The translations under genes and the position numbers were made by a program. This document shows, piece after piece, positions 53,901 through 58,454 of a stretch of DNA of 64,000 nucleotides. The notes below the pieces were generated by a model, which did no database searches, was not told the origin of the DNA, and worked only from the letters and a program-made list of their open reading frames with translations. Positions within the stretch are counted from its first letter, which is position 1; the number at the start of each line of letters is the position of its first letter. The DNA comes from Parachlamydiales bacterium (GTDB lineage Bacteria > Chlamydiota > Chlamydiia > Chlamydiales > JAJFMK01), in assembly GCA_963704365.1 (NCBI GenBank), contig OY969899.1, positions 88,121 to 152,120 of the forward strand, given 5' to 3'.

Positions 53901-56900
53901 GATCTCAATCGGATTGCCTTTTTCATCATAGCGATACTCAGTGACTAATCCCCGTTTATCCTGTGTCGATTTTAGGCTTCTCGGATAGCCTACAGCCCCA
54001 TCAAATGAGGCGATGATACACTCTTTTTCTGCATCAAAGTAAGAGGAGTCATCGATGAACCAAGATTGTAACGTTACATGCCCTTCTGGGTCAGTGATCT
54101 TGTAAATCTGCTTCTCATAAATTTTGTAGGTAGTGGAAGCACCGCTTGAATCTGTCACATGGGTGATTCCGTCTAGATAAGCAAAAATGGCGCTTGTGGC
54201 CATTTTTTGTGCAGGACCTACAGGTGAGCGTTGAGAGATGACTCTCCCTTTTTCATCGTAACTATTTTCTAGTACCTTGCCGTGAGGTCTTGTTTCAGAT
54301 GTTAGTCTATGAGAGAGGTCATATTCATAAGAGATTTCTGCACTATTTGGTAAGACAACTTTGACCAGGTCACCGAAGGAGTTGTACGAGTAGCAGATCC
54401 GACGGCCATCTTTTGCATAGGCCTCCGAGATAGTTCCCCGGTAGTTGTAATGGAAGCCGATGTAACTTCCATTGGAACTTTCGATCCTAGTCAGTTGCCC
54501 ATCTGTGTATAAGAAGCTGAGTGTGTGCCCTGCGCTGTTTATCCATTTTTTGAGCAGATAGTTTTCAAAGACACGTTTAGAGCCGTCAGAACCGTACAGG
54601 ATGAACTCGTTTTGGTTTTCAATGAAGGCATTAAAGGGGTTGGCCATGCTCCCAATCCCTCTTTTGTTGAAATTTTGGAGATCAGGGTTATCTTCAGGAA
54701 GAACAATCCATTTTGATTTTTCTGGATGGTATCGATAGACAATGACGGTTCCATCTACTTCCGAGGCATAGAGCTTGTCATCTTCTTCGACGAGTTGAGG
54801 ATTAAGCCCAAGTTTCCACCCGCAACCAAAAAGGCCAGGAATGGGATTTTGACTATTGTAATTACGACGAATAGTAAGGGGGAAGGGCCCTGGCAGGGTA
54901 AGGTCAACCTCATCTACATAAAAGGCACCTGTCACAACATCTACAGGGTCAGAGACTAAATTTGAAAGTGCCTTATGTCCAGGCCTCACATCAGGTTTCA
55001 ACCAGTCGCCAAGTATTTCTTTATGATCTGTTGCAGGGAAAGGTTGTAGCTTCGTTAAAGAAAAAGGGGGATTATTTAAGGCAACCGCTAGGGTAGACCA
55101 CTCGGCTTTTTTGAGCGTTGGGATGAAGCTTGAGGGGATTTGGGATCCAAAACCTCCATGCATGATCCTTAAGGAATCGGAAATGAGGGCTTGCGTCAGA
55201 TTGCGACCTAAAATCAGGCTTCCCATTCCGGTATAGGAAGGGAGGGGGTTGAGGCTTGAGACGGGCCCCGGTGTGACGTAGGCTACAGAATGATCGTCAT
55301 TTTTTAACACTGCGCCAGCAGCTTCCCACTGTCCTTTTCCGAGAGCCAAAATTTTTCGAATATTCAAGTCTGGCAAATGGGCAAAGTGGAGCAACTTAGC
55401 AATATCAGGTGCAGCAGTTGCTTCTGTATGGGTTTTTTCAGTTAATGCTAAAAACCCAGTTCCTTTTAACCCTTTCCTTTGGTGTTCATCGTGGGCGATT
55501 TGAAGCAGTTTAACAGTGGAAATGGCGTAGGGGTCTTGGAAAACGTCGTGGAGGATTTGGTGTTCGTTTGATGACAGGTCAGCTGTAATCAGCGCGACAT
55601 AATCGGTGAAGTTGGAAGACTGTGTCTGTTGCAAAAGAGGGGAGATGTACGGTTTATTTCCAAAAAACATCATATCGACTTGAGGAAACTTCAAATCGGG
55701 CTCACCAATAATAGGCCCGTTTGAGGTGTCTGGAGAAAGTTTTGCAAGGCCAAAATCGAAATAAATTACCGGGGGTACTTTGTGGAGAGTGGCCAGCAAT
55801 TTTTGTGCCTTGCAACATTTTTCAAAGTATTGGGCCCCTACAAAAGCTAAAAACTGATCGATTTTGTCTCCAGTGTTATCTTTTTGCAGATAACGCTCAG
55901 CAAAAAGAGATGTCATCTTTTCAGAGCCGTTTCCAAAGCAAAAACAGACCGCGGCTTGAGTCCCTTTAACAAAGGTGACGTTTTTTATCTGTTCCCGCTC
56001 TCCTGCCTTATAGGTCACTTTCATGTTGAGAATCTGGTCTTCGGAATTCAGGGGGAATCGCTGGTAAGAAAGGTCCTGTCCCTTTTCATTTTGAAGTTTT
56101 AGAACAAGGTGATGCCCATCCCGTATCGGTTCAAAATGGATCGATATGGCCCTCCCATTTAAGGCAGGAAGAGACCAATTTTCCTTTACTTTCTTATCGG
56201 GGTTTTCTGCCGATGAAATTTCTATTTCTAAATAGGCTAAAAGTTTTGGAGATAAATTCTCTGTCACTTCGAAAAGACCCACTTCAGGCCTAGGGAACGC
56301 TTCCCAAGAAGCAAAAGGTTGTTTGATGATCGATCGGTGTGTTCCAACATCTTCAAGTGTAAGCCCCTGTTTATGGATCTGTTCTTCCACACATTTGATA
56401 AAGAGAACAAAGGCTGTATCATTATGTTCGGGGCCGATATGTTTTAGAATGTTTTCATCATTGCTGAGGTATCTTTGGAGCCATCGGTTGGCGCTTGCAT
56501 ACTCCTTAGGCATTAACCCGTAGAGGTCGGCCCCTTCTTTCACTTGGATATTTTTCATCCAGGGGAAAAGGTAGATCCATCTGTCTCCATCTTTGAGTAG
56601 GACAAACGGGTAATGAAGCACAGTGTGTTCTTGCCCTTCCAGTTGGGTGAATAAAAGCCTCTCAACATACTCAGTGGGAAGGGCCAGCTTTGATTGGCCG
56701 TAGATGGCTGTAAAACCTGCCTCTCGGAGAAGGTAGACGAGAAGGGCACACTGTTCCCACGGTCCTCCTTCTCCTTCTAAAAATGTTCCAGCAGCGCTTT
56801 TATGCAATGGGGATGCTTGAAAAAATCCTTCCTGATCTCTTGTTAAAAGCGGGTCAACCAGCTCTATTTCGTTTTGGACATATTGAGCGATTGCAAGTGG

Positions 56901-58454: not shown

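Follow-up and report, generated by a model that had tools for sequence, protein, structure and literature searches.

We examined a large gene within a 64,000-nucleotide stretch of DNA (hereafter the window) from a Parachlamydiales bacterium (assembly GCA_963704365.1, contig OY969899.1, positions 88,121 to 152,120 of the forward strand). The gene probably codes for a polymorphic-toxin scaffold of the Rhs/YD-repeat kind, exported by Sec and with an inactive transglutaminase-like domain before its shell, and the copy in the window is disarmed. Read from the N-terminus, the product would consist of a type I signal peptide, a K/E-rich helical domain, a pre-shell module of about 800 residues, a flexible linker, a DUF6531 plug and a YD shell. 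The pre-shell module would in turn comprise a beta-sandwich, a transglutaminase fold in which Cys, His and Asp have become Pro, Tyr and Phe, an all-beta region and an uncharacterised alpha/beta domain. A first-pass annotation of the same DNA had described an Rhs protein with a Sec signal, a long coiled coil and a transglutaminase module with a Cys...His arrangement; the YD shell, the Sec-type N-terminus and the fold before the shell all stood, while the coiled coil and the Cys...His arrangement did not. The gene occupies the following open reading frame (ORF):

50904..58454, minus strand: whole ORF of 2516 residues, starting at GTG; codes for an Rhs/YD-repeat protein whose N-terminal module is long and whose C-terminus is truncated.

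The GTG start of this ORF is preceded by GAGG. The identical 2516-residue product and its DNA were observed on contigs of at least four independent samples, one of them a 2.6-Mb metagenome-assembled contig, and the identity between the window and these assemblies was 100% over 5-12 kb; samples ERZ25039480 and SRR34864986 carry the strain. Because the DNA is identical across independent samples, the peculiarities of the ORF are not assembly errors, and a frameshift arising from sequencing error was ruled out. A further assembly (L009; ERZ25039528 contig_144921) showed 17 gap openings over 6.8 kb when compared with window positions 57064-63840, and its Rhs ORF was broken into small pieces; these gaps are most likely assembly indel noise, with four other assemblies 100% identical to the window. 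The closest relatives, at 36-63% identity, were found in metagenome-assembled genomes of Parachlamydiales, Parachlamydiaceae, Rhabdochlamydiaceae and Simkania. The window DNA is therefore that of an environmental, uncultured chlamydia.

The start of the Rhs shell at 54950, as given by the first-pass annotation, was confirmed, with 'DPVDVVTGAF' opening at residue 1169, the first residue of DUF6531. The features from this point to the end of the gene and just beyond it are:

54735..54950, minus strand: DUF6531, the Rhs N-terminal plug (residues 1169-1240; PF20148, E 6e-18).
50967..54734, minus strand: YD/RHS-repeat shell with a partial Rhs-associated core at its end (residues 1241-2496).
50941..50975, minus strand: lesion in the Rhs-associated core, a frameshift after 'RFLSPD' at about 50972/50973 that is identical in independent assemblies.
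50709..50941, no strand assigned: inverted-repeat element resembling a miniature inverted-repeat transposable element (MITE), 233 bp, with 59-nt arms at 50709-50767 and 50883-50941 that are 86% complementary.

RHS/YD repeats were matched in 8 stretches by PF05593 (E 1.4e-52) and also by TIGR01643 (E 1.4e-40), and a precomputed TEN_YD-shell Pfam match is on record for the window protein. Pfam and NCBIfam scans of all 2516 residues found no PAAR, VgrG, VgrG-interaction or prePAAR/transmembrane domain, in agreement with the earlier statement that no PAAR/VgrG-type N-terminal domain is visible. Chlamydiota are not known to have a T6SS (type VI secretion system).

The Rhs-associated core of the window copy was incomplete, matching only positions 12-51 of 76 in TIGR03696 (residues 2454-2496), and the complete DPxG...DPxG aspartyl autoprotease motif was absent. 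The sequence in full-length relatives is ...YYDPxxGRFLSPDPIxxPxxLxLYxYANGDPINFxDPxGRF, after which comes a toxin of 220-250 residues. Past the frameshift, the other frame of the window DNA reads PINFTDPNGRY, and the roughly 17 residues in between (IxxPxxLxLYxYANGDP), kept in all full-length homologues, are gone. The sequence points to a deletion of about 52 nt between two GAYCCNAT repeats, which would explain both the frameshift and the missing residues. The ORF stops 20 codons past the frameshift and inside the inverted-repeat element, which begins directly after DPNGR(Y), occupies the place of the toxin cassette and holds the stop codon (50904-50906). Neither a toxin domain nor an immunity gene was observed here, and no same-strand ORF precedes the convergent gene, which ends about 100 nt beyond the element. 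That the ORF ends within the Rhs-associated core with no toxin had escaped the first-pass annotation.

Each arm of the 233-bp element bears an internal CCCATGTCGTAGGCATGGG hairpin, and a 'TA' target duplication at the element is indistinguishable from an extension of the repeat. A search with its 21-mer core returned 2 exact matches in metagenome contigs, of which the inspected one (L004) is set in a dense ORF context that looks unrelated; nothing in this search speaks for a multicopy MITE. A related palindrome, CCCATGGCGTTGCCATGGG, was observed elsewhere in the window as two copies in opposite orientation (18811-18829 and 19387-19405, 0 expected by chance), which flank an ORF of 150 residues (18881..19333).

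We found that the window copy is disarmed; it is most likely a decaying or toxin-less remnant, and a loss of its function may be presumed. It could instead be argued that the toxin-less protein still works as an exported empty YD shell with an N-terminal binding module, kept on as a surface adhesin or for interaction with the host, just as teneurins have a YD shell and deliver no toxin. Nothing interrupts the 2,490 codons that remain, at least four independent samples share the identical allele, and both the signal peptide and every N-terminal domain are intact and well predicted. Even so, we judge continued function of this kind unlikely, as the lesions are of a decay type (a deletion has shifted the frame, the cassette is lost and the stop lies in a repeat element), the identical DNA may come from one strain and hence carry no signal of selection, and fragmentation is common at related chlamydial loci. 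In two metagenome-assembled genomes of Parachlamydiales, the homologous Rhs genes were each split into 3 consecutive ORFs, of 1311, 560 and 206 residues in one (L001, 8708-14738) and of 1414, 1395 and 617 residues in the other (L003, 9020-19872); the splits may reflect frequent decay in chlamydiae or long-read indel errors.

The protein retains its whole pre-shell region, which was modelled with AlphaFold2 over residues 330-1168 on the basis of 41 sequences. The model reached a predicted local distance difference test score (pLDDT) of 87.4 and a predicted template modelling score (pTM) of 0.88, and placed a beta-sandwich (342-456), an alpha/beta core (about 505-700), an all-beta region (705-840), an alpha/beta domain and a disordered linker in that order. 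These correspond to the following features:

57087..57431, minus strand: beta-sandwich before the core (residues 342-456; AlphaFold2 pLDDT about 90), conserved in 66 proteins.
Residues ~461-465, minus strand: PPPWQL-type motif after the beta-sandwich, which reads SPWQL in the window copy.
56355..56942, minus strand: transglutaminase-like (papain-like) fold domain, presumably inactive in catalysis (residues ~505-700; AlphaFold2, Foldseek, and PF01841 in relatives).
55935..56342, minus strand: all-beta region after the core (residues 705-840; AlphaFold2 pLDDT >90), conserved in 153 family proteins.
55074..55922, minus strand: conserved alpha/beta domain with no known relative (residues 845-1127; AlphaFold2 pLDDT 80-97), present in 144 of 163 family proteins.
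54951..55073, minus strand: linker to the Rhs plug (residues 1128-1168; pLDDT <50).

When the model was compared with the PDB by Foldseek, the top 26 matches were animal transglutaminase-family proteins (TG3, TG2, factor XIII and the inactive protein 4.2; E about 1e-4), followed by the bacterial transglutaminase-like 3isr (probability 0.97) and 3kd4. The alignments to the animal proteins ran over 650-730 columns, which are column totals and not per-residue coverage but are consistent with the beta-sandwich being included. TM-scores were low because the four-domain model was compared as one whole. The sequence evidence for the fold is independent of the AlphaFold2 model. At E<=10, 17 of 20 relatives matched PF01841 (Transglut_core), the best at 25.9 bits against a curated cutoff of 23 and the only one above it, and the family profile matched 9y6s_8G, a 'transglutaminase-like domain-containing protein', in the PDB (E 0.013). 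A phmmer search of the PDB with the transglutaminase-like domain of a relative gave chance matches only, and scans of residues 450-720 of the window protein gave no Pfam, NCBIfam or PDB sequence match, as was also the case for residues 1-1168 as a whole. Taken with the predicted structure, a transglutaminase-like fold for residues ~505-700 is supported, and the proposal of such a fold near Cys 569 was borne out when structure prediction and Foldseek were run.

An exhaustive search for the pre-shell module returned 296 clusters (at 50% identity) with E<1e-3, and 192 with E<1e-30, many of them Rhs proteins of 3000-4000 residues. The module was observed across Planctomycetota, Verrucomicrobiota, Chlamydiota and Ignavibacteriae, with named members including Phycisphaerae, Cerasicoccus, Chthoniobacterales, Methylacidiphilales, Ignavibacteriae and many chlamydiae. 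Where both ends could be placed (108 proteins), the distance from the start of the transglutaminase-like domain to the plug had a median of 778 residues. The architecture is widespread and fixed and no chlamydial oddity. The first-pass annotation had called it an unusual delivery architecture for an Rhs protein; about 296 clusters share it, and it matches the inactive transglutaminase domain in the published description of Zhang, de Souza, Anantharaman, Iyer and Aravind (2012, Biol Direct 7:18; PMC3482391).

As expected of polymorphic toxins, the C-terminal domains of the relatives were diverse. The full-length relatives include a protein of 2513 residues at L002. The toxin of one full-length chlamydial relative (P0037) was a Tox-REase-9 (E 1e-26), and other relatives ended in a DUF687/hydrolase-like domain with a CHSGG motif or in unrelated domains. 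A toxin type of about 240 residues was shared by many full-length chlamydial relatives (L002 16240-16987 and the C-termini of P0029, P0032, P0036, P0041, P0044, P0047 and P0051). Its motifs, NG(I/M)xNT...(C/H)HS(G/R/Q)G...VVAIAP...DHxFxSPT(F/Y), include a nucleophile elbow like that of alpha/beta-hydrolases, and it had at best a weak Pfam match to DUF687 (E 4e-8).

The part of the locus that stays new is the alpha/beta domain at about residues 845-1135 (about 290 residues). Six of its residues (Y876, K892, S961, E964, H965 and S979) were invariant in a sample of 14 sequences and at least 94% conserved across the 144 proteins that carry the domain, and D927 was nearly invariant. Per-member Pfam scans gave no match, no PDB profile match was observed, and Foldseek with residues 840-1168 found nothing below E 0.26 in the PDB and no match in BFVD. 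Such conservation of polar residues, in a confidently folded domain always located between the transglutaminase-like domain and the plug, could be taken to mean that the module of about 800 residues is an active delivery or processing device, with 845-1135 as an enzyme or as a receptor-binding or translocation unit of a Sec-dependent Rhs route. We regard this as quite doubtful. Its fuller form is held with similarly low confidence: the module would by itself form a Sec-dependent device for Rhs delivery, shared by Planctomycetota, Verrucomicrobiota and Chlamydiota, with 845-1135 (Ser-x-x-Glu-His, Lys, Tyr, Asp) as its key part and the dead transglutaminase fold as its scaffold. If true, this would account for the use of giant Rhs toxins by bacteria that lack a T6SS. 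The domain is a reasonable target for understanding Rhs delivery independent of T6SS.

Two features precede the modelled region:

58392..58454, minus strand: type I signal-peptide-like N-terminus by inspection (residues 1-21; K2, hydrophobic core 3-18, SQG↓SPP, the arrow marking the presumed cut).
57465..58391, minus strand: K/E-rich, presumably helical domain (residues 22-330), restricted to the chlamydial subgroup and with no Pfam or PDB sequence match.

The N-terminus reads M/VKFVSLLLSLLFLLAPLFSQG↓SPP, with K2, an uncharged hydrophobic core of 16 residues, S at -3 and G at -1. The core, FVSLLLSLLFLLAPLF, is followed by S-Q-G↓S, and this n/h/c layout was matched by inspection only, as was the lack of a lipobox Cys. 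By a crude test, 103 of the 133 family proteins with an N-terminal extension had a signal-peptide-like N-terminus. By inspection, the cleavable-looking signal peptide of the first-pass annotation fits the type I layout, homologues have like N-termini, and the protein may well be exported by Sec and cleaved. A different route would require that the N-terminus be an uncleaved membrane anchor, or that the chlamydial type III system take the protein as its substrate. Type III substrates normally lack such hydrophobic N-termini, and the layout with small residues at -3 and -1 recurs in homologues (...FSVDA↓KK, ...LIYA↓KD and ...LVFG↓LD). Export outside Sec is for these reasons very unlikely, although inactive transglutaminase domains are described as following either a signal peptide or a transmembrane helix (PMC3482391).

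The region that follows the signal peptide had been called a long coiled coil. Its K/E-rich character was confirmed, at 23.6% K+E in residues 22-330 against 12.1% in the remaining protein, but a canonical coiled coil was not supported, as Gly/Pro breaks occur each 30-40 residues and the heptad signal was only moderate. An iterative search identified it as a homologous domain of about 300 residues in 53 of 163 family proteins, always directly after the signal peptide, and these 53 make up a chlamydial-type subgroup. In the other family members the N-terminal extensions were unrelated and poor in K/E, with Laminin_G_3, Big_7 and RCC1 among them. The region is better named a conserved and presumably helical K/E-rich domain of the chlamydial subgroup. 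A homology search with residues 1-1168 as query found no relatives, and the same search without the K/E-rich region did; K/E-rich words probably swamped the candidate list.

The canonical motif of the transglutaminase superfamily reads G-x-C-x-x-F-A-...-L-x-R-x-x-G-I-P, and the triad of TG2 is C277, H335 and D358. The Cys codon named by the first-pass annotation (56748-56750) is correct and encodes the Cys of GGPWEQC, residue 569, and the segment with its His, LHYPFVLLKDGDRWIYLFPW, corresponds to residues 613-632. The positions that bear on catalysis are:

56760..56762, minus strand: Pro565, at the canonical nucleophile-Cys position, where the helix begins; 137 of 155 relatives have Pro here.
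56748..56750, minus strand: Cys569, at a small-residue position one helical turn past the nucleophile; aligns with Ala281 of TG2.
56610..56615, minus strand: His614-Tyr615, with Tyr615 at the presumed His position in strand 610-622, by motif comparison only.
56565..56567, minus strand: Phe630, at the presumed Asp position (LFPW in place of xDPT).

Several alignments place these residues. In the HMMER alignment to 9y6s_8G, GSPlEQCaLLvyLLrkaG was opposite GNCFEMSLVLVSLLIGAG, with GSPlEQC opposite GNCFEMS. An hhalign alignment to the TG2 core (probability 0.17%, TG2 sequence entered by hand) set W566/E/Q/C569 opposite W278/V/F/A281 (QCWVFA) and broke down before the His/Asp region. In the AlphaFold2 model the helix starts at 565, Tyr615 lies in the next strand, and Phe630 follows the strand after that. 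For the other two catalytic positions, motif comparison paired YPWV with HAWVE and WIxLFPW with WVxFDPT; the Pfam alignment of a relative stops immediately ahead of Phe630, at position 106 of the 108 in the profile. Instead of a Cys-His-Asp triad, the three positions hold Pro565, Tyr615 and Phe630. Tyr615 was conserved in 146 of 157 relatives and Phe630 in 143 of 156, and Pro616, Pro631 and Trp632 were invariant across the family (155-157 members). Alignments and model together argue strongly that all three triad positions have been lost. Of 155 relatives, 149 have Cys at position 569 itself, 5 have Ser and 1 has Asp, and the occasional Ser fits a structural small residue.

The Cys...His arrangement of the first-pass annotation was thus not upheld. 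A reading in which Cys569 and His614 make the N-terminal module enzymatic, as an active transglutaminase or cysteine protease, would draw on a real transglutaminase-like fold and on a Cys569 held within an invariant E-Q-C motif, but is highly improbable and largely refuted by conservation: His614 is kept in only 8 of 157 relatives (Asn being commonest) and the domain has no further invariant His, Cys569 lies opposite Ala281 of TG2 and four residues past a nucleophile position that is mostly Pro, Ser or Asp replaces it in 6 relatives, Tyr and Phe hold the canonical His and Asp positions, and the published analysis of such domains likewise concluded that they are inactive (PMC3482391).

Several points weigh against the reading of the gene as a Sec-exported scaffold with a dead transglutaminase-like domain and a disarmed C-terminus. 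Export, surface location and binding are all inferred. The window's own transglutaminase-like segment has no match to PF01841, even at E<=10. Conservation of Cys569 (96%) is high for a merely structural residue, and the catalytic register depends on weak alignments (E 0.013 and an hhalign probability of 0.17%) and on a predicted helix start, not on a 3D superposition. The match to the class of Zhang et al. was made by their text description and not by the alignment in their Figure 5D (PMC3482391). Finally, an otherwise intact ORF of 7.5 kb could mean that a toxin-less protein is still in use.

Under the scaffold reading, and in analogy to Rhs and Tc proteins already characterised, intact relatives would encapsulate a toxin and release it by autoproteolysis. 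Beyond the shell, these full-length proteins have a DPxGR↓F autoproteolysis motif and then the variable toxin of 220-250 residues. The dead transglutaminase-like module most likely serves in binding or anchoring and not as an enzyme, and would hold the shell in place or present it, either at the envelope of the cell or on a target. In the window copy, a frameshifting deletion would have destroyed the second half of the protease motif, leaving a frame that runs out in the inverted repeat with no toxin or immunity gene to follow. The window gene should be annotated neither as an active toxin nor as a cysteine protease. More broadly, chlamydiae and relatives in Planctomycetota and Verrucomicrobiota appear to carry Rhs toxins without T6SS, with a Sec-type N-terminus and a dead transglutaminase-like module, as predicted from genomics in 2012 (PMC3482391). 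The module is much larger and more conserved than in that published description, extending over about 800 residues and about 296 clusters with no Pfam model covering the region.

The surroundings of the gene were also examined. No gene neighbour was conserved between the window and three related loci, and a dedicated secretion partner encoded next door was rejected on this basis. The gene directly upstream of the Rhs ORF (58963-60840, minus strand) encodes 625 residues with a transmembrane segment and a tetratricopeptide repeat region, and its C-terminal ~85 residues were weakly similar to PDB 6d7y_A (E 0.024, residues 13-95 of 96), the CdiA-CT of P. aeruginosa PABL017, a BECR-fold tRNase (PMC9086364). 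An ORF of 75-80 residues with no Pfam match (58724-58966, minus strand) overlaps the stop of this gene by 4 nt, the position of an immunity gene, and the two are possibly a second toxin/immunity pair beside the Rhs gene. Just downstream of the truncated Rhs gene, two multi-pass membrane proteins with no Pfam match (47608-48450, minus strand, and 49833-50612, plus strand) were distant paralogues (24% identity, E 2e-10) and flank a third unannotated membrane protein (48630..49643). Farther away, at 10613-10694 on the plus strand, ARAGORN called a tRNA-Pro (anticodon AGG) within an opposite-strand ORF of 340 residues (10397..11419), which may be a false positive.

Among known systems, the protein resembles T6SS Rhs effectors (PAAR-Rhs proteins such as RhsA of Photorhabdus and Pseudomonas and Tse15 of Acinetobacter) in its DUF6531-type plug, YD shell and Rhs-associated core, and its relatives also share with them the DPxG autoproteolysis motif and a C-terminal toxin. 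Unlike these effectors, it has no PAAR, VgrG-binding, prePAAR/transmembrane or clade domain and has a signal peptide instead, and the toxin is missing in the window copy. A YD shell outside a T6SS context is shared with the TcB/TcC cocoon of Tc toxins and with the teneurins of eukaryotes; in contrast to TcB, no SpvB or beta-propeller domain and no TcA partner nearby were observed, and in contrast to teneurins there are no EGF, NHL or TTR domains. Affiliation with PAAR/T6SS or with Tc toxins was rejected, as no such domains were found. The best structural matches were to animal transglutaminases (TG2, TG3, factor XIII and protein 4.2), which have a beta-sandwich, core and beta domains in similar order and include a family member, protein 4.2 (7uzs), that is likewise inactive. 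The window protein differs from them in its sequence (8-11% identity), in very low global TM-scores and in the lack of a triad, and it is bacterial, fused to a YD shell and found in a presumably secreted context.

The closest likeness in description is to the class of Zhang et al. (PMC3482391), whose text lists, under export dependent on Sec and the type II secretion system (T2SS), an N-terminal transglutaminase domain without one or more triad residues that precedes RHS repeats, sometimes beside bacterial Ig domains. The same account places this inactive domain after a signal peptide or transmembrane helix, proposes that it anchors the toxin by binding peptides, and lists Tox-REase-9 with RHS repeats for chlamydiae. 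The window protein and its relatives agree with this class in having the fold with lost catalytic residues, N-terminal, past a signal peptide and before RHS repeats, in the variable C-terminal toxins of the relatives, Tox-REase-9 included, and in the lack of a marker for T6SS or for the type V (T5SS) or type VII (T7SS) systems. They differ from the class as described in that the domain does not immediately follow the signal peptide, some 480 residues (the K/E-rich domain and the beta-sandwich) lying between, in that all three triad positions appear lost, and in the conserved module of about 800 residues with its undescribed domain. New here are that domain at 845-1135, which is without a known relative, and the loss of the toxin in the window copy.

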